Assembly: GCA_011364975.1 (NCBI GenBank)
Contig: RDOE01000087.1
Location: 1 to 14,075, forward strand
Length of the DNA stretch: 14,075 nucleotides
Direction: 5' to 3'
Source of the DNA: Promethearchaeota archaeon
GTDB lineage: Archaea > Asgardarchaeota > Lokiarchaeia > Sigyniarchaeales > SOKP01
The notes under the pieces were generated by a model. That model worked only from the letters and a program-made list of their open reading frames with translations, was not told the DNA's origin and did not search any database. Position numbers and translations under genes: made by a program. Below are positions 2,534-12,872 of the stretch, piece after piece. Each line of letters begins with the position of its first letter. Position 1 is the first letter of the stretch.

Positions 2534-3727
2534 TCAAGTAATTTCTATATTAACACCACAATTTTTACATCGACTGTCTTTTAATTCTTGAAAGCACTGT
2601 TCATGGTATAGCGTTTGGCAATTACTACACCGGATAATTTTTTGACCCTCCTCAAAAATAAAGTTACATACAGGGCAAGAGCTAAATATTCCATCAGTAT
2701 CAAGATCTTTGAATTTTAAAGTTTCAGCTTCCGATCTTTCGGGAGTTTTTGAGGATGAGGGCATTCTTATTCTTGGTTTAACTAGAGAGGTAAGTTTCTG
2801 GGCTTGTGTGACCTCTGTTGGAATTTTTAATAAATAAAAACAATGAGGACATCTAACAGTTCCTGCTGATCTCATCTTGTTATCTTTCTGAGACTCTGCC
2901 CATGAATTTAAACAATGAATATGAAAGGGTGTTTGACAGTTTGGACAGTATCGACCACTCACATAAAAAGAACTTTTGGTAAAAGGATTTGTATCTGAGA
3001 AACATATTGAACATTTTTTATAATCAGCTAACCCTCGTATTTGTAATAATCTTTGTTCTTGATCTTTTGTTAGGTCTTGAACTCTTAGTAAGTCTGCTGC
3101 AATCTTCCGAAGAAAACCAGGATTTTCGATCAATGATTGGCGAGTATTTCCATATGTTTTAATGTTAGAAATCGCTAAATCATGAGCAGATTGGTATAAG
3201 GTTTGAGCATCATTATTATAATAATATTTTCCGCCTGTTAGGTCACTTATTCTTTTAAGGATATTTTGAGTGGACGTTTCTCCTAATCGAAATGAATCTA
3301 TTTTAATATTTAAACCTTGAGCAAGACGTGCCATTTTTAAGGGATCTATTGAGGATTTTGAGTAATTTCCATCTGAGATTATGAGAATTCGGGGTGCTTT
3401 TGCTGCTATTTTCCGTAACTCAGAAATCAATAATTTTATCGAAAATCCTAAAGCATCGCCCATAGCAGATTCACCTCCCATTGTTAATGAGCTTAACGAT
3501 TGAAACAAATTATCTTTGATATCAGTAAATTCTAAAATCTGTTTTGGTTTATCAGAAAAGGCAACGATCGCAAAAAAACTTGATAAATCATCAGCAAATC
3601 TTTCACTAATTAATTTTTTAACCGCCTCAATACTACATATTAGACGATTTGGTTGATAATCAGTTCGATACATTGATCTCGATGTGTCTAGACAAATCAC
3701 TATATTTTCGGGAAGCCGTTCAGACAA
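2534..3727 (-). CDS. vWA-domain protein with two C-terminal C4HC3 RING-like zinc fingers (Ssl1/p44-like architecture, candidate E3 ligase)
   Basis: MIDAS DTSRS and ISDG, DYQPNRL and LTGGKYY define the vWA domain (about aa 1-190). Finger 1 is C-x2-C-x18-C-x2-C-x4-H-x2-C-x20-C-x2-C (2840-3013). Finger 2 is C-x2-C-x12-C-x2-C-x4-H-x2-C-x8-C-x2-C (2558-2677). TTG start. Confidence 0.85.
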   Translation of the reverse strand: MSERLPENIVICLDTSRSMYRTDYQPNRLICSIEAVKKLISERFADDLSSFFAIVAFSDKPKQILEFTDIKDNLFQSLSSLTMGGESAMGDALGFSIKLLISELRKIAAKAPRILIISDGNYSKSSIDPLKMARLAQGLNIKIDSFRLGETSTQNILKRISDLTGGKYYYNNDAQTLYQSAHDLAISNIKTYGNTRQSLIENPGFLRKIAADLLRVQDLTKDQEQRLLQIRGLADYKKCSICFSDTNPFTKSSFYVSGRYCPNCQTPFHIHCLNSWAESQKDNKMRSAGTVRCPHCFYLLKIPTEVTQAQKLTSLVKPRIRMPSSSKTPERSEAETLKFKDLDTDGIFSSCPVCNFIFEEGQKIIRCSNCQTLYHEQCFQELKDSRCKNCGVNIEIT

Positions 3728-3934
3728 GATTATTAACCCTTTTTATAGTTTACAAGAGCCCTTAATTAAGTTTCTAACAGTGATATATAAAAAGTAAAAT
3801 AAATAATTATGTTTTTCACAAAACTAAAGCTTTATTAGTTAGATATTTCATTATATATAAAACCTTTATTAATTAAAAAAATATAGATATAGTATTGAAT
3901 TTAAGAATTATTGATACTAAATCCAAGATGAACT
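3728..3934. promoter_or_regulatory. Divergent promoter region between the vWA-RING gene and the GTPase gene
   Basis: 207-bp very AT-rich spacer. Archaeal TATA-like TTTATATA on the minus strand near 3784-3791, and TTTATTA/TTATATATA elements at about 3831-3875 on the plus strand. Confidence 0.5.
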
Positions 3935-5143
3935 ATGTCTGAAGATGAGACAAAAAGCGTAGTTATTAAAGATTTTTTTAAAAGTTCAGTAATTATCAAT
4001 GAATTAGATGAAGTGTTAAGATTCAAACCAGAGACAATAATTGGTATTGATCAAGTCTCGTCTAACGCCCTCATCGAAAATAATATTAAGGATATTGAAG
4101 ATTTAGCTAAACTATCAGTTGATGCCCTACCAAATATTAAAGTTATCCCTAAAGAAATTCTAGCTAAATGGGTGAGGATTGCTAAAGTAATTGAGAAAAC
4201 TATTCGAGAAAAGATGAAATCTCATAAGAAATTGCTTATGATTGGTCTCGATAATGGGGGAAAGACGAGTATTTTAGCAGTTATTCAAGAACGATTTTCC
4301 ATAATTAAATCATTATTACCAACCAGAGGAGTAAAGCGCGAAAAGTTAGACTTTTTTGGATATCCAATTTTGAGTTGGGACCTCGGTGGCCAGGTTCAAT
4401 ACCGTGAAAAATTATATTTCAATCGTCCTGAACTTTTCTTTACTGAAGTCGATATTGTCCTTTATGTAGTCGATAGCCAAGATTCAGATAGGTTTCCTGA
4501 ATCCGCTAATTATTTTAGGGAAGTATTGAATGCTTTGAAAGATTTGAACGAACATCCTCCTGTTTTAGTAATCCTATCAAAAAGTGATCAAGATTTCCGA
4601 ACGACGTTATCATGGAGAGACAATGTTTCCACCGTCAAGAAAAAATTTGATCAAATTGCAGCAGAGTTCGGTAATATTTCGATCGACTATGCGGATACCA
4701 CTATTTATCAAAGAGAAACTATTATGCATATGTTTAGCGTCGCTTTAAAGAAAGTTTCTGAAACATCTGAGATTGTTGAGAATATTCTGGAAGATTTTAC
4801 TCATACAATTCAAGGAAAGGCTGCAAGTTTAATCTCTATGGATGGACTTATTTTTGGCAATTTCACAGATTCGGATATTGATGAAGCATTATTAAACAAT
4901 ACTGCCTTAATAATGCAAACTCTTTCAAATTTCCATAATTCAATCGGATTGAAAAGAGAAAATACCATTACTCTGGAGTTTCCACTTAATGGATTTACAA
5001 TTAGAGGAGAAAAATTGTTTGAGTACTCAGAACTTAAAATTCCTGTTTATTTATGGATATTATCAGAGAATCCAGATTTAATGTATGAGAAAATTGATTA
5101 TTTCAAACTACAAGTATTACCTTTAATTAATTTATTTATTTAA
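3935..5143 (+). CDS. Small GTPase (Rag/Gtr-like, Arf-related) with N-terminal helix-hairpin-helix-like domain and C-terminal roadblock domain
   Basis: G1 GLDNGGKT, G2 PTRG, G3 WDLGGQ, G4 SKSD and a G5-like TTIY. The C-terminal 'IQGKAASLISMDGLIFGN' is a roadblock/profilin-like beta-hairpin signature. The N-terminal 'IIGIDQVSSNALIENNIKDIEDLA...IPKEILAKWVRIA' is HhH-like. Confidence 0.85.
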   Translation: MSEDETKSVVIKDFFKSSVIINELDEVLRFKPETIIGIDQVSSNALIENNIKDIEDLAKLSVDALPNIKVIPKEILAKWVRIAKVIEKTIREKMKSHKKLLMIGLDNGGKTSILAVIQERFSIIKSLLPTRGVKREKLDFFGYPILSWDLGGQVQYREKLYFNRPELFFTEVDIVLYVVDSQDSDRFPESANYFREVLNALKDLNEHPPVLVILSKSDQDFRTTLSWRDNVSTVKKKFDQIAAEFGNISIDYADTTIYQRETIMHMFSVALKKVSETSEIVENILEDFTHTIQGKAASLISMDGLIFGNFTDSDIDEALLNNTALIMQTLSNFHNSIGLKRENTITLEFPLNGFTIRGEKLFEYSELKIPVYLWILSENPDLMYEKIDYFKLQVLPLINLFI

Positions 5144-5189
5144 TCCTATTTTTTCAATATAATCTGGGTTTAGCAAAATCTTTTCAAGC

Positions 5190-5396
5190 TTAACTTAATT
5201 CTTCCTTAGCAGAGAGTAAAAATTGGGTAGATTTATCCATCATTTCAATAGCTTGGTTCAATTTGTTTGCAATAGATTCTAAGCCTTTTTCCTGAGCAAT
5301 TTTACGCCATTTTTCATAGTTCTCTTTATGTGACTCATTATGATTTGCCCAATGTTCACATAATTTAGCTAATTTCAAAATATCTTTATCTATCAT
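5190..5396 (-). CDS. cooJ: CooJ-like nickel-binding CODH accessory protein (short form without His-rich tail)
   Basis: 68-aa helical/coiled-coil ORF with HWANHNESH, an exact match to the CooJ-family H(W/F)x2Hx3H Ni(II) motif (5328-5354). It lies 68 bp downstream of cdhA on the same strand. Confidence 0.75.
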   Translation of the reverse strand: MIDKDILKLAKLCEHWANHNESHKENYEKWRKIAQEKGLESIANKLNQAIEMMDKSTQFLLSAKEELS

Positions 5397-5428
5397 ATGA
5401 ATTCACTAATATTTATAAGATAATAATT

Positions 5429-5454
5429 AAAAAAAAGAACAAAAAAATAAAAAG
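5429..5454 (-). terminator. Oligo-T archaeal terminator-like tract after cdhA
   Basis: The minus strand reads CTTTTTATTTTTTTGTTCTTTTTTTT immediately after the cdhA stop. Confidence 0.45.
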
Positions 5455-5464
5455 ATAAGCTTAC

Positions 5465-8109: not shown

Positions 8110-8706
8110 TTATAGTGATGCTAAAAAGTCTGAAACGGCTTCATCAGAGATTTCTTCATCAACCAATTTATCATCTAGCATTTCACCGATTAAATCAAAT
8201 TTAAACGAACATTTCTCTCCACCCGTTAAGATGCATTCTATTTCTTTTCCCTCAGCCTCTATTCCTAAAACATCTAGAAACCCTGCAAATACCCCTTGAT
8301 AAAGAAGACACAAATTTTTTGCCATAATGCTCTCTTTATCTTCTGTTGCCAACGATTCGTAGACATTAACTATTAAGTGATCTTTTTTAAACATTCCTGT
8401 TAATGCTCCATACCCTAGCAACATCAATACTTCCAGAGACCCTAGGAAAACCTCTTTTTTGGTAGCAATCGTTTCTTTGCTCCAGTCTTTATTGTAAAAG
8501 AATTTTTCCATAAATGTCTTACCAAGTGTTTTTCCTACCCATATTAAAATATCATCCGCATTAGTGCCAGCAAATTCGCAAAATTCCATTATTTCGTTGG
8601 GTCTGAGCATTACTAATCTCAAACCTTTTTTTTTGTCTCCTAAAAAGAGTTGACCTTCTTTATCTTCAATATTTATTTCGAGGTCTTTTTTAAGTCGTTT
8701 AAACAT
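8110..8706 (-). CDS. V4R (4-vinyl reductase) domain protein, H-NOX/TRAPP-Bet3 fold superfamily
   Basis: Motifs 'ILIWVGKTLGK', 'LGYGAL', 'NLCLLYQGVFAGFL' and the terminal 'EIECILTGGEKCSFKF' give the V4R C...E-x2-C-x7-C zinc signature. Acidic C-terminal tail. Confidence 0.85.
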   Translation of the reverse strand: MFKRLKKDLEINIEDKEGQLFLGDKKKGLRLVMLRPNEIMEFCEFAGTNADDILIWVGKTLGKTFMEKFFYNKDWSKETIATKKEVFLGSLEVLMLLGYGALTGMFKKDHLIVNVYESLATEDKESIMAKNLCLLYQGVFAGFLDVLGIEAEGKEIECILTGGEKCSFKFDLIGEMLDDKLVDEEISDEAVSDFLASL

Positions 8707-8835: not shown

Positions 8836-9867
8836 TTATACGTAATTAAGAACGATATTTACAACTTCTTCAATATGATAATTAGTTTTTACAGATGTAA
8901 GGATAAATTTCCACTCGATATTAGTTAGCTTTTCAAGCTCAAAAAAATCAATTATTTCATTTTCAATTCTTTCAATTTGTTGATTGCCTGGATTATTGAG
9001 ATTCTTAATTAAATCGACTTTATTTCCTAAAATTACTAAAAGAGCATCTGAAAAATCATGTTTATTGATTATATTCCACAATTCTTTCTTAGCTTCTTCA
9101 AATCGAATTTGATTAGCCACATCGATCATATAAATGATAATATTTGATTCTTGAATTCCATTTAACCACTGTTCTCTAAAGATAAATTGACCTCCCATAT
9201 CCCAAAAGGAATATACTCCACTGGGTTTTTGAAGATATTCAATATTAAATTTACGTGTAGGTGAATAGTAATTGTCGTTAAACTGCCCAGTCTTTATTCT
9301 TCTTATGAAGGATGATTTCCCAGCGTTATCAATTCCGAATAAAAAAACTTTTGCAGAAATTCCCGCTGGATGGATAGAAATTTTAGGATATTTATCAAGG
9401 ATCTCATCCCCATATCTACGTATGTCAATAAATAACGTAATTAAGAAATTTTCAATTTCCATTTCATCTTCAAAATAGCAACACTTTTCAGCGTTCAAAA
9501 GTTCATTAGCTTGATCTTCAAAAATTTCTTTATAATCATATGGGTTATCATCTTTTTCAAAGATTAACCCAATAAGTATTGTTGAATTGATGCAAAGTGT
9601 AAAAATATTATATTGGTCGATATTTTGAGGTATAGGTGAGCTAATGGTAAACTCTTTAGAAATTTTTTGAATTAAATCCAATTTCTGATTATTGTCATTA
9701 TTGAGATTGTGGGATTTATATTTTTCTCCCTTTTCATGACCAGATATAATTTTTTGGATGAAATTGAGATCTTCCTTCCTTGTTAAATCTTCAGGATAAC
9801 TATATATATCAAGATGGTTCAAATTTTGAGGATTTTTTCCTTTTAGGAGAAAAATTTTTGTTAACAA
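8836..9867 (-). CDS. Arf/Arl-like small GTPase with an approximately 165-aa N-terminal putative longin/uDENN-like domain
   Basis: G1 GIDNAGKS, G2 SPT, G3 WDMGGQ, G4 NKVD and G5 TSVK. The Arf-like 'FREQW', 'IIYMIDVA..RFEEAKKEL' are present. The N-terminal beta-beta-alpha-beta-beta-beta-alpha pattern (YSYPEDL...ILIGLIFEKDDNPYDYKEIF) suggests a longin fold (inference). TTG start. Confidence 0.85.
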   Translation of the reverse strand: MLTKIFLLKGKNPQNLNHLDIYSYPEDLTRKEDLNFIQKIISGHEKGEKYKSHNLNNDNNQKLDLIQKISKEFTISSPIPQNIDQYNIFTLCINSTILIGLIFEKDDNPYDYKEIFEDQANELLNAEKCCYFEDEMEIENFLITLFIDIRRYGDEILDKYPKISIHPAGISAKVFLFGIDNAGKSSFIRRIKTGQFNDNYYSPTRKFNIEYLQKPSGVYSFWDMGGQFIFREQWLNGIQESNIIIYMIDVANQIRFEEAKKELWNIINKHDFSDALLVILGNKVDLIKNLNNPGNQQIERIENEIIDFFELEKLTNIEWKFILTSVKTNYHIEEVVNIVLNYV

Positions 9868-10028: not shown

Positions 10029-11420
10029 TTAGGACTCTTTATTCTCATTTTTCTCTGCTTCTTGATTGGAATCATTATCTATAGTTTCTTTTTCATCAAT
10101 TCCTTTTGTTTCGGAGGATTCTTCAGAAGGCTTTTCCCCTACAGGAGTTTCACAAATAGGACATGTAGTCCATCCGGGACGTAAAGAATAACCACAATTA
10201 GAACATTCGATGAGACTTTCATCAGGTTTCCATTCTGGTATGTTAAGCGCGCCTCCCCTCCTTTCTTTTGCTAATTCTTGTAATTGCTCTTCTGTCCAAA
10301 CTTCCATTCCTTCTGGAATTCCAGACCCTCTTTCCTGAGAGAATTTAGCCAGATCATCTACTGTCCAAGTAGGTAAATTAGGTTGGGAAGATAATCTTTG
10401 CTGTGCTTGTTGAGCAAGTTCTTCTGAAGTCCATACTTTGAGTTCTTGACCACCAGGAGTTCTGATTGCTCCAGATCCTTGGGACGTATCTTGCACAGAA
10501 GCGGTCGCTTCGTCCATTGATATAGACGGTACATTACAACTCGCGGCAGATAATTTCAATAATGCCTCGAAACATTCTTCATATTTAGTATTTTCAGAGC
10601 TCTGATTTGTAACTACAACCAAACTTTTTTTATCTGCGGGTAACGGTATTATAATGCTACAAACATTAATATCTGATATTGCTTGTTCAGAATCTACATC
10701 AGGTGAAATTTTTTTCATAGAACTCATTAATTCAGAATCTTTCATGAAGAAATCACAAATAGGATCACCATGCCGTTGATAACCTTCATGATATTTTGCT
10801 AATTGATTTTTAGTTAGAGGGGAGTCGAATGATTTTATAATAGCGTTAATATATGGAAAGTTATGAGCCTTTGGTATGCTTTTCGTTTCATCTATCTTAA
10901 AACCTCCAAGATCTAAATTTCCCATTAATGGAGCAAATAGTGGTTCTTCACCCTTTATTTTTCCATAAATTGTGGTTCTACCAGTAAAGCATTTTACTTC
11001 ACCATAATAAGCTATCTGGTTATCATAAAATTGAACTTTACCATCATAAACAAGAGTGGGCATAGTGCAAAATATTACATCCATCCAAGGTAATTCTTTT
11101 ACCGGAATTATGACAGTACAAGTTTTTATTATCATTTCAGATAATTTCTTTAAATAATCCTTTAGATCTTTTTTAATATCCTTATATTTTTCTCTTTCTA
11201 ATTCTTTATTGGCTTTATTCAATAATTCATTAAACTTTTCCTCATTCTTCTTAATTGAGCCACCCAACGCTTTAAGTTCTCCGATGATATTATCTTTTAA
11301 TATAAATGTAGCATCATCAATAACTTCTTTTTGAAGTTCTGTTAGTTCCTCAACAAGATATTCGCTAATATCAAAATTTAAACTATTTATGAACATATCA
11401 AACAATTTTGATTCTGACAA
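10029..11420 (-). CDS. Hypothetical protein with WTxEEL-type repeats, C-terminal C4 zinc finger and acidic tail
   Basis: 463-aa ORF with a TTG start preceded by SD-like GAAGGTAA. Features are an N-terminal coiled-coil-like segment, a central alpha/beta region, three WT-x-(E/D)-(E/D/Q)-L repeats, CSNC-x10-CPIC and a Glu/Asn-rich tail. Confidence 0.8.
   Translation of the reverse strand: MSESKLFDMFINSLNFDISEYLVEELTELQKEVIDDATFILKDNIIGELKALGGSIKKNEEKFNELLNKANKELEREKYKDIKKDLKDYLKKLSEMIIKTCTVIIPVKELPWMDVIFCTMPTLVYDGKVQFYDNQIAYYGEVKCFTGRTTIYGKIKGEEPLFAPLMGNLDLGGFKIDETKSIPKAHNFPYINAIIKSFDSPLTKNQLAKYHEGYQRHGDPICDFFMKDSELMSSMKKISPDVDSEQAISDINVCSIIIPLPADKKSLVVVTNQSSENTKYEECFEALLKLSAASCNVPSISMDEATASVQDTSQGSGAIRTPGGQELKVWTSEELAQQAQQRLSSQPNLPTWTVDDLAKFSQERGSGIPEGMEVWTEEQLQELAKERRGGALNIPEWKPDESLIECSNCGYSLRPGWTTCPICETPVGEKPSEESSETKGIDEKETIDNDSNQEAEKNENKES
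10222..10445 (-). repeat. Intragenic protein-level tandem repeat, 22-23 aa period
   Basis: LKVWTSEELAQQAQQR / LPTWTVDDLAKFSQER / MEVWTEEQLQELAKER / IPEWKPDE. Trp codons are at 10431-33, 10365-67, 10296-98 and 10230-32 (spacing 66, 69, 66 nt). Confidence 0.8.
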
Positions 11421-11837
11421 AATATTTACCTTCGCAGATTGATTTGTTGTTTTTATAAATATATCAACTTAATGAATATAAAAATTTATTTGAAAATCAT
11501 TTTAATTTGTTTTTACATAATTTTGAAACTATTCTTCATAAATGATCAAGAATGACTCAAAATTGTTGCATAAAGTTGTTCAGATCTCGTTTGAAAAGAG
11601 GGTTCCATTATATTTTCTTTTTAACCGTATAAATTTTGAAGTAAATAATTGATTCCTAACATATTTTATAGAGAACGATTCTTCTTGTATTTTCTTCGAG
11701 ATCTCTAGATATCTCCTCGATTAAATTGCCTAACGCTTTTATTGATATTGACTTAATTTATAAATTCTTACTTTTTAAATTCAAAATTTTTAGATTCAAA
11801 TGACAAATATTTTATCATAAAGATATTAGTATATCCT

Positions 11838-12872
11838 ATGCCAAATAATACGAAAAAACCGATCGAGGTTTATTTTATAGATAAAATCCCTCTAAACGTT
11901 CAAAATTATTTAATTAACAATTTAAGCCACTTAGAGAATGTAAAACTTAATTTTATTGATAAAGTACAAGAAGAATATATTTTAGAGAATATCTCAGAAG
12001 CGCATATTATAATCGGATGGCGGCCAACATTAAAAATGTTAGAAAAAGCGGATAATTTAAAATTAGTAATTAACCCTGGGGCAGGAATTAGACATCTTTT
12101 AGATACTTTTCGGGAGATTAATAAAAAACGTAAAATTAATCTCGTAAATGGACATGGAAATTCCTATTTTGTGGCTCAACATGCGGTTGCTTTGTTATTA
12201 TCTCTAATGAATAAAATTATACCTCATCATGAGTGGATGAAAGAAGGAAAATGGAGGACTGGAGACAAAGAAGGTGCTTCAATTCCACTTAGATTTCGGA
12301 AAGTAGGATTATTTGGTTATGGTGCTATAAATCAGAAAGTGCATCAGATGTTAGCTGGATTTGAAGTTGAATTTTCCATACTTAGAAAGCATTGGGACAA
12401 ACAAACTCAAGAACTGATAACTCCTGCTAAAAAGTATCAATTTTGGCAATTTCATGACTTTCTTAAAGAAATTGATATTTTAATTATTGCCGTACCCGCA
12501 ACCACTATTACTGAAGGGATAATACAGCAAAAAGAATTAGAATTATTAGGCCCTAATGCTTTGATTGTCAATGTTGCGCGAGGTGAAATAATAAATGAAG
12601 CAAATTTATATAATTCTTTAAAGGAAAATGTTATTGCTGGAGCTGCAATTGATGTGTGGTATAATTATGATCCACAAAATAATGAAAATGGTAAAAAATA
12701 TCCATATAGTTTTCCATTTCACAAACTTGATAACATAATTTTATCTCCCCATCGAGGATACTCCCCATTTAGCGATTTATTACGATGGAATGAAGTTATC
12801 GAAAATATTTCACGAATGAGTCAAGGAAGGAATGATTTTGTTAATCTCGTATCCTTAGAGGATGAATATTAA
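11838..12872 (+). CDS. D-isomer-specific 2-hydroxyacid dehydrogenase (SerA/glyoxylate-hydroxypyruvate reductase-like)
   Basis: PGAG, N..VAQHAVALLL, Rossmann VGLFGYGAI, AVPATTITEGII, NVARG (catalytic Arg), AAIDVW and LSPH (catalytic His). Confidence 0.92.
   Translation: MPNNTKKPIEVYFIDKIPLNVQNYLINNLSHLENVKLNFIDKVQEEYILENISEAHIIIGWRPTLKMLEKADNLKLVINPGAGIRHLLDTFREINKKRKINLVNGHGNSYFVAQHAVALLLSLMNKIIPHHEWMKEGKWRTGDKEGASIPLRFRKVGLFGYGAINQKVHQMLAGFEVEFSILRKHWDKQTQELITPAKKYQFWQFHDFLKEIDILIIAVPATTITEGIIQQKELELLGPNALIVNVARGEIINEANLYNSLKENVIAGAAIDVWYNYDPQNNENGKKYPYSFPFHKLDNIILSPHRGYSPFSDLLRWNEVIENISRMSQGRNDFVNLVSLEDEY

Follow-up and report, generated by a model that had tools for sequence, protein, structure and literature searches.

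A vWA and two-RING protein family of one Asgard class: a candidate E3 ligase or adaptor on the p44/Ssl1 plan

To our knowledge, the non-enzymatic core of TFIIH (p44, p34, p52 and p62) has no recognised archaeal counterpart. We analysed a 14,075-nucleotide stretch of an Asgard archaeal genome of the class Lokiarchaeia (contig RDOE01000087.1; hereafter the window), in which one minus-strand gene encodes a protein of 397 amino acids (aa) made of a vWA domain and two RING-type fingers, a layout resembling that of the TFIIH subunit p44/Ssl1. In p44 itself, an N-terminal extension is described as contacting XPB, and a C4 zinc module (eZnF) lies between the vWA domain and the RING and interlocks with p34 (PMC6422496). 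The p44 RING, whose nearest neighbours are given as RNF38 and Ark2C, binds the vWA domain of p34 via the surface used by E3 RINGs for E2, and E3 activity of yeast p44/Ssl1 is reported in the Discussion of the same article (PMC5737387). The nearest literature on the archaeal side concerns an XPB/RAD25-like family (PMC9258230) and the small RING E3s of ubiquitin operons; with one small RING E3, different from the protein treated here, an Asgard E1/E2/RING-E3 cascade was reconstituted in vitro (bioRxiv 10.1101/2023.07.25.550441). No publication connecting Asgard or Lokiarchaeal genomes with Ssl1/p44, or with any vWA-RING protein, came up in a literature search, although supplementary catalogues of Asgard eukaryotic signature proteins may list the family, and the terms TFIIH, GTF2H2 and vWA are absent from the main text of a 2026 structural-clustering preprint.

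The comparison of sequences, fold models and genomes revealed that the fused vWA-RING family is universal in this one Asgard class and that no member turned up in the other classes sampled. We tentatively propose the protein as a candidate RING-type E3 ligase or adaptor for the class's ubiquitin-like modifier system, built on the p44/Ssl1 plan. A universally retained multi-copy family that combines this plan with a FANCL-type RING in one Asgard class is a concrete experimental target; it could bring a substrate-binding E3 into the Asgard ubiquitin system and could show the origin of vWA-RING scaffolds of the p44/p34 kind.

Domain plan and the two RING fingers

The initial annotation had placed the gene at 2534..3727 and had described a vWA domain followed by two C4HC3 cross-brace fingers. 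The coordinates were right and the strand is minus; the domain layout was borne out by Pfam, ligand conservation and fold models, and the strings HIHCLNSW and CPHC are both present in the translation. The features of the gene are as follows.

2534..3727, minus strand: whole gene, vWA plus two-RING protein, 397 aa (open reading frame list and translation; stop codon at 2534-2536)
2840..3013, minus strand: finger 1, C4HC3 RING, C239..C296 (conserved ligands and structural matches)
2558..2677, minus strand: finger 2, C4HC3 RING of the Prok-RING_1 type, C351..C390 (Pfam, profile and VIA-align)
3158..3706, minus strand: vWA domain, about aa 8-190 (Pfam, AlphaFold2 (AF2) model and VIA-align)
3674..3688, minus strand: motif of the metal ion-dependent adhesion site (MIDAS) type, D14-x-S16-x-S18 (DTSRS), read from the sequence
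3086..3115, minus strand: linker motif FLRKIAADLL, aa 205-214 (family alignments)

The protein is a single 397-aa open reading frame (ORF) with the start codon TTG, whereas the plus-strand reading of the same interval holds stops throughout; its N terminus, MSERLPENIV, agrees with the consensus MSERxPENIV of the homologues, and this shared beginning makes the TTG start credible. The AF2 model of the full-length protein reached a predicted local distance difference test (pLDDT) score of 84.2 and a predicted template-modelling score (pTM) of 0.69, and the two-finger region modelled alone reached a pLDDT of 80.2.

The eight ligands of finger 1 (C239, C242, C261, C264, H269, C272, C293 and C296) are invariant in 29 diverse family members and in 122 homologues, as is W276; for I241 and P294, conservation is at least 90% in both sets. 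We take I241, W276 and P294 to be the E2-contact positions of a RING, that is, the hydrophobic residue after the first cysteine, the tryptophan of the central helix and the proline after the seventh cysteine. Among the 29 diverse members this putative triad is found as I/V241 in 29/29, W276 in 29/29 and P294 in 27/29, and it is kept in all paralogue groups. The MIDAS residues (D-S-S plus D119), by comparison, are complete in only 15/29 and degenerate in the remainder, and therefore the RING surface is the constant feature of the family; the invariant columns of the 29 diverse members and the 122 homologues are essentially the zinc ligands of the two fingers together with W276 and L299.

The best structural match to finger 1 was the FANCL RING of an E2-E3 complex (4ccg_Y; VIA-align Z 7.7, root-mean-square deviation (rmsd) 2.1, 64 of 67 residues aligned, 25% identity), followed by listerin (Z 6.3 and 6.0) and then NSE1 and Slx1; the Z values for this set are 7.7, 7.3, 6.3, 6.0, 5.5 and 5.1, every one below 8, so that they may reflect a common arrangement only. 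The RINGs of FANCL, listerin, NSE1 and Slx1 are C4HC3 variants, and FANCL and listerin are working E3s. That the best matches to finger 1 are all C4HC3-type RINGs, FANCL in its E2-E3 complex included, supports the E3 reading. Pfam zf-RING_2 matched finger 1 with 25.9 bits, under its cut-off of 27.3. In Foldseek, all listed matches of the finger model at a probability of at least 0.8 were RINGs, U-boxes or whole p44 chains, and the low-probability rows include PHD/PZP modules and one zinc-finger array. Both fingers model as RINGs rather than as PHD or C1 folds, in line with what the initial annotation had expected of them.

The ligands of finger 2 (C351, C354, C367, C370, H375, C378, C387 and C390) are likewise invariant in the 29 and 122 rows except for C378, which is kept in at least 90% of both and is invariant in a 30-row alignment. 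Scanned alone, finger 2 matched Pfam Prok-RING_1 (PF14446) with 32.8 bits and passed the cut-off of 29.1, whereas in the whole-protein scan the same model gave 27.7 bits, below that cut-off; 11/29 diverse members matched it at E<=0.01. The Prok-RING families were reportedly first described by Burroughs et al. in 2011 (Mol Biosyst). The finger profile matched the RING-H2 of Arkadia with 37.2 bits (E 2.4e-8), and the finger 2 profile aligned with Arkadia, RNF38, RLIM and RNF165 at E 2.4e-8 to 2e-6. Structurally, finger 2 matched RNF165 (VIA-align Z 6.7), the p44 RING of 8ebs_E residues 327-386 (Z 6.6, rmsd 2.2, 58 residues aligned) and RNF38 (Z 6.4), with RNF12 and RNF13 as further matches and C1 domains at only about Z 4.5. 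The p44 RING chains (Z 6.6, 5.8 and 5.5) are tied with the RING-H2 ligases; since the Z values of the fingers are below 8 and tied, they establish the fold class and not descent. A second, 369-aa protein of the same genome (L003:1486-2595, minus strand, contig C106) ends in a Prok-RING_1-like domain of the finger 2 type behind an unrelated N-terminal domain, which shows that, in this genome, finger 2 is mobile as a module.

The vWA domain was matched over aa 8-177 by Pfam VWA_2 (7.8e-16) and VWA (2.8e-14) and modelled with a pLDDT of about 82-96; D119 sits in the ISDG strand, and from its residues the MIDAS motif of the protein is apparently intact. Between the vWA domain and the fingers, the linker follows the pattern hydrophobic-L-x-E/D-I-A-x-x-L across the family: A210 and L213 do not vary in any of the 15 rows of the vWA-and-linker alignment and show at least 90% conservation in both the 29-row and the 122-row sets, as do L206 and I209 in the 122-row set. 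The linker motif is among the few strongly conserved stretches beyond the zinc ligands. A ubiquitin-interacting motif (UIM) is expected to carry a serine. A reading of L-x-E-I-A-x-x-L as resembling a UIM or MIU was dropped, as the linker lacks the UIM serine and the model is partly extended there.

Structural likeness of the whole chain and of the vWA domain

With the whole chain as the query against the Protein Data Bank (PDB), the best 20 Foldseek matches were all p44/Ssl1 (E down to 2.7e-18), 17 of them aligning over 386-411 columns, and VIA-align superposed whole p44 chains at Z 24-26 over 241-254 residues, the aligned stretch reaching residue 392. For the vWA domain alone, VIA-align gave Z 24.9 to Ssl1 4wfq (rmsd 2.0, 184 residues aligned) and 24.8 to p44 6ro4_D, and the Foldseek template-modelling scores were 0.84-0.86 for vWA-only p44/Ssl1 chains (rmsd 2.0-2.3), 0.71-0.72 for BatA/BatB-like chains and 0.73-0.80 for Rpn10. 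The resemblance to p44/Ssl1 claimed by the initial annotation holds in structure, p44/Ssl1 being the top match of the whole chain and also of the vWA domain taken by itself. At the sequence level, an alignment by HMMER against PDB p44 (whole-sequence E 7e-5) matched all three human p44 blocks named in the annotation, DGSRTMEDQDLKPNRLTCT, HGEPSLYNSL and ETGGTYHVILD, to the protein. Pfam Ssl1 (PF04056; cut-off 27) gave 33.8 bits by hmmscan and 35.7 bits in the genome scan, and was matched at E<=0.01 by 16/29 diverse members (best 4.9e-12); the margin is thin, with 2/20 BatA-like controls reaching 27.8-28.0 bits. Pfam Tfb4 (cut-off 27) gave 26.1 bits by hmmscan and 27.4 bits in the genome scan. 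Within the genome, Ssl1 matched only this protein and a paralogue, and Tfb4 only this protein. In the ESM Atlas, eukaryotic TF2H2 clusters were the nearest named non-Asgard clusters to the full-length protein (0.90).

The vWA domain alone does not separate p44/Rpn10 from BatA-like prokaryotic vWAs. Its VIA-align Z values to a BatA-like chain (23.6) and to BatB (23.1) are about one unit under that to p44, and those to Rpn10 (21.2-22.9) are below both the p44 and the BatA-like chains. Among solved chains the family profile ranked human Rpn10 first (67.2 bits) and human p44 second (66.1 bits), with further Rpn10 chains at 60.7 (S. pombe), 56.1 (Arabidopsis) and 52-54 bits (yeast), and fungal Ssl1 at 35-41 bits, lower than a Vibrio BatA-like chain at 48.5. 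Against NCBIfam BatA the protein scored 44.9 bits, the cut-off being 380. In a scan of 1.84 billion representative proteins, the next matches beyond the family were mostly BatA/BatB-type proteins of about 330 aa, and a eukaryotic Rpn10-like protein stood within the best 150; the family vWA profile matched unnamed prokaryote-type vWAs with 60-108 bits and this single Rpn10-like protein with 65.5. Searched among longer proteins, the vWA-only profile found 8 unrelated long vWA proteins and no Ssl1, and the Rpn10-like protein used as a query among the representatives retrieved only itself. Language-model neighbours of the vWA domain were equally mixed, archaeal, bacterial and eukaryotic Ssl1 clusters all lying at 0.89-0.90.

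A tree of 53 vWA rows, containing one Rpn10-like sequence and no p44, resolved the family as one clade (SH-aLRT 97), with the Rpn10-like sequence on a long branch (3.4). Beyond this clade the tree gives no placement of the family, neither with p44/Rpn10, the grouping that the initial annotation had inferred, nor with BatA. Of the proposed kinship with a p44/Rpn10 vWA clade, the structural likeness to p44 as top match stands, whereas the vWA comparisons do not separate the family from BatA-like vWAs; the block DxSxSM-x3-D-x2-PNRL is equally present in BatA-like controls and so does not discriminate them from p44. Common descent with p44 is not established by this likeness of architecture. Unnamed vWA-only proteins of 192 aa (P0263) grouped weakly with the lone Rpn10-like sequence in the tree (SH-aLRT 81); separately, the nearest named Atlas cluster to the vWA domain is a 192-aa vWA cluster of Thermoproteota, and a 1642-aa protein of the fungus Mycena (P0273) joins VWA_2 to an E2 domain (UQ_con), an independent link between vWA and ubiquitin.

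Family distribution and genomic setting

A word-seeded search retrieved 319 homologues at E<=1e-3, of which the best 120 are 58-99% identical to the protein and of about equal length; the named ones are called 'VWA domain-containing protein' and come nearly all from Loki-, Prometh-, Hermod-, Hod- or Thorarchaeota, with one bacterial label. The exhaustive scan of the 1.84 billion representatives gave 1559 matches at E<=1e-3, of which 100 also reached E<=1e-10, and it extended to full-length members of only about 22% identity. The family profile was present in 159/160 other genomes of the window's class, mostly in 2-4 copies per genome (a count of 4 standing for at least 4). In the other Asgard classes it produced weak matches (E about 1e-11) in 9/239 genomes; four of these nine and one more were inspected and held only separate vWA-only or finger-only genes, so that the fused family was found in 0/239 of the genomes sampled. 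Pfam Ssl1 showed the same distribution, with 155/160 genomes of the class, 0/239 of the other Asgard classes and 0/14 control genomes.

The tree of the 29 diverse members consists of two deep clades (100/100 each), one with the protein and the other with a paralogue of the same genome (392 aa, contig C123, 31% identical). The genome holds four copies in all, the remaining two being divergent tandem genes on contig C155 (L095:4100-5497, plus strand, 465 aa; L095:5638-7059, plus strand, 473 aa). Both have a degenerate vWA domain without DxSxS and SDG, a module like finger 1 that has additional cysteines and Y for W, and a C-terminal zinc ribbon, and were detected only by the finger 1 profile (E 6e-6 and 1.4e-4). 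In some members of the family, coiled coils or other extensions replace finger 2. A further paralogue, 24-27% identical to the protein and to the C123 paralogue, occurs in two other genera (L059 about 3399-4448; L062 about 11571-12620), where it sits between Rag-like GTPase and CdhA genes; the corresponding interval of the window, 5144-5464, holds only a 68-aa ORF, and so this copy is missing here.

The genome encodes an operon for a ubiquitin-like protein (Ubl), E1, E2 and JAB on contig C128 and a second E1-like gene with a second E2 on contig C132; the E2 of the genome has the HPN motif and the catalytic cysteine and was found in 40/41 genomes of the taxonomic family. The genome also encodes one XPD-type helicase and four or more additional RING-H2-type proteins, and none of all these genes lies near the vWA-RING gene. 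No Pfam match to Tfb2/p52 was found in the genome, which is weak evidence as the same model was silent in every control genome too. Directly after the C128 operon lies a gene for a multi-pass membrane protein of 398 aa (P0271; L019:10477-11673, plus strand) with several hydrophobic segments in its N-terminal half, no Pfam or NCBIfam match, and a C-terminal finger, C-x2-C...C-x2-C-x4-H...W...C-x2-C, that resembles finger 1; the ubiquitin operon may thus have in it a membrane-bound RING E3 of its own.

One neighbour of the vWA-RING gene in the window has a conserved position:

3935..5143, plus strand: Rag/Gtr1-Arf-type GTPase gene, divergent from the vWA-RING gene (Pfam Gtr1_RagA 1.5e-21)

The two genes are adjacent in 5/5 genera checked in the same taxonomic family and in 0/3 class-level loci, and the syntenic block of TPR, MtrH-like, vWA-RING, Rag-like GTPase and CdhA genes is conserved only within that one family. 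Other products of the window are MtrH-like, CdhA-like and V4R proteins, and its Arf/Rag-type GTPases number two in all. Both GTPases have long N-terminal extensions, the G domain starting from about aa 95 in the product of 3935-5143 (Gtr1/RagA and Arf matches) and from about aa 171 in that of 8836-9867 (minus strand; Arf), and the V4R-domain protein is encoded between them at 8110-8706. A 463-aa protein (10029-11420, minus strand), whose position is kept in the syntenic block, carries four acidic repeats led by tryptophan (WTSEEL, WTVDDL, WTEEQL and WKPDES), behind which come a zinc ribbon and an acidic tail. The C123-type paralogue adjoins the gene for methionyl-tRNA synthetase (MetRS) in 6/7 paralogue-type loci, up to the level of the order; these are among L002, L050, L053, L054, L056, L057 and L063, with one pair about 1.8 kb apart and one of the six loci from another family of the same order. 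An M20 peptidase gene accompanies the C123-type paralogue in this genome and recurs in 4 of those loci, at a distance of 6 kb in one. No mechanism can be read from this setting or from the block around the vWA-RING gene. With a GC content of 0.24-0.39, the window is AT-rich. One 192-nt contig from one metatranscriptome run matched 2759-2950 exactly and two other runs of the same study held nothing matching the gene, which is too little to claim transcription. PADLOC defence-system models gave no match for the protein and chance-level matches only for its paralogues.

Candidate function and comparison with known systems

As a candidate E3 ligase or adaptor, the protein draws on what was observed of its folds, of the conservation of its ligands and triad, and of the cognate enzyme genes in its genome; from these we infer every binding step. 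Finger 1 would dock a charged E2 through I241, W276 and P294, and the vWA domain would hold a substrate or partner, probably with the MIDAS engaging an acidic side chain. A second protein contact would fall to finger 2 and, by analogy with the p44 RING and the p34 vWA domain, could be to the vWA domain of a co-resident paralogue (2-4 per cell). The coupling to the Asgard ubiquitin system proposed in the initial annotation is supported by the E1, E2, Ubl and JAB genes of the genome, and is qualified by the confinement of the family to one class and by its distance from the ubiquitin genes.

Several observations weigh against the ligase or adaptor proposal. Other Asgard classes also carry ubiquitin systems. 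As the fused family was found in none of the 239 genomes sampled from them, the protein would be at best a lineage-specific E3, and, with its confinement to one class, the family does not belong to the Asgard ubiquitin system at large. The gene is not near the ubiquitin genes, and the C128 operon carries a RING-like membrane protein of its own. Finger 2 is without the W and P hallmarks, its E2-contact positions not being kept. PHD and C1 Pfam models found weak matches in 14 and 18 of the 29 diverse members, the PHD pattern sharing the C4HC3 spacing. Furthermore, the triad of finger 1 could serve another partner, since the surface of the p44 RING that corresponds to the E2 site is described as binding a vWA domain (PMC5737387).

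This last observation, that the p44 RING engages p34 in an E2-like manner without needing ligase activity (PMC5737387), also favours a non-catalytic scaffold, a reading we consider conceivable and on the unlikely side. Here the vWA domain and fingers would be interaction modules for protein, lipid or nucleic acid in a lineage-specific complex unrelated to ubiquitin transfer, possibly with hetero-oligomers of paralogues formed by RING-vWA contacts and perhaps tied to the neighbouring small-GTPase genes. The 2-4 paralogues per genome (four in this one), the exchange of finger 2 for coiled coils or other extensions, the weak PHD and C1 matches and the lack of linkage to ubiquitin genes, with a Rag/Gtr1-like GTPase gene as the conserved neighbour in 5/5 genera, are all consistent with it. 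Against these stand the best structural neighbours of both fingers, which include several RINGs solved with E2, and the I/W/P triad, which occupies what we take to be E2-contact positions and is the most conserved surface of the family; the GTPase adjacency, moreover, belongs to a gene-order block of one taxonomic family and is gone at class level.

An archaeal counterpart of TFIIH p44, in which the vWA domain would bind and stimulate XPD while a p34-like paralogue would be held through the fingers, appears improbable. In its favour are the whole-chain Foldseek and VIA-align matches, the Ssl1 and Tfb4 matches, both passed in the genome scan (35.7 and 27.4 bits) and shared with nothing else in the genome except the paralogue (Ssl1), the nearness of the eukaryotic TF2H2 clusters and the presence of an XPD-type helicase. 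However, the gene is not adjacent to XPD, the family was not found in the other Asgard classes sampled (0/239), Tfb2/p52 was not matched in the genome (weak, as that model matched no control genome), and the vWA domain alone is equally near BatA-like vWAs; the protein also departs from p44 in its N terminus and its middle zinc module, and Pfam C1_4 is not matched among the models listed. We would assign a similarly low likelihood to the broader idea that in this family the archaeal stem of the p44/p34 pair (perhaps that of Rpn10 as well) has survived, acting as an XPD-binding scaffold with E3 activity via RING-vWA contacts; if it were true, the structural core of TFIIH would have been assembled before eukaryotes from an Asgard ubiquitin-ligase module, and other classes would have lost the family. 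Least probable is an Rpn10-like ubiquitin receptor that would pass modified proteins on to the proteasome: among solved structures, the family profile finds its highest and most consistent sequence matches in Rpn10 chains, and an Rpn10-like protein is among the best 150 of the representatives, but the VIA-align scores to Rpn10 fall under those to p44 and BatA-like chains, and the C-terminal half consists of two RINGs, with no UIM among the Pfam matches at E<=0.01, a short motif that could escape HMMER filters.

Compared with described proteins, the family shares with BatA/BatB-type vWAs the DxSxSM-x3-D-x2-PNRL, TGG and SDG blocks. BatA-like controls keep GTAIG where the protein has GGESAMG, and match DUF1194, DUF58 and CoxE, which are outside the 25 of 35 models most matched by the family; the family in turn matches Ssl1 and Tfb4 more strongly than those controls do. 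The BatA type has an N-terminal membrane domain, whereas the protein has no BatA match in Pfam and its vWA domain starts from residue 8; its locus, unlike those of the BatA type, is without MoxR/DUF58 neighbours, and the RING fingers are unique to the family. In Rpn10, the stretch DNSEWM...P-x-R was aligned by HMMER to DTSRSM...PNRL of the protein; UIMs and no RING follow the vWA domain there, in contrast to the two RINGs here. The FANCL, listerin, NSE1 and Slx1 RINGs are like finger 1 in ligand order and fold, with 25-32% identity to FANCL and listerin, and Pfam FANCL_C and SLX1_C reach 17 bits with it, under their cut-offs. Prokaryotic RINGs are described as C4HC3 in a review (PMC11354881), as in finger 2; the archaeal operon RING E3s are small and operon-encoded, whereas this protein is a vWA and two-RING fusion away from the operon.

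The closest likeness is to p44/Ssl1, which has the same domain order, a vWA domain and then zinc modules ending in a cross-brace RING. The N-terminal extension by which p44 is described as reaching XPB is absent, and the position of the C4 eZnF of p44 is taken here by a binuclear FANCL-like C4HC3 RING (PMC6422496 for the p44 plan). Pfam C1_4, listed for 73-91% of the members of the eukaryotic TF2H2 clusters of the Atlas, was not among the best 25 of 37 and the 22 models listed at E<=10 for the fingers, and the last RING is C4C4 in p44 and C4HC3 here. Finger 2 superposes on the p44 RING at Z 6.6 and rmsd 2.2, level with its matches to RING-H2 ligases, and shares with it the neighbours given for p44, RNF38 and Ark2C (PMC5737387).

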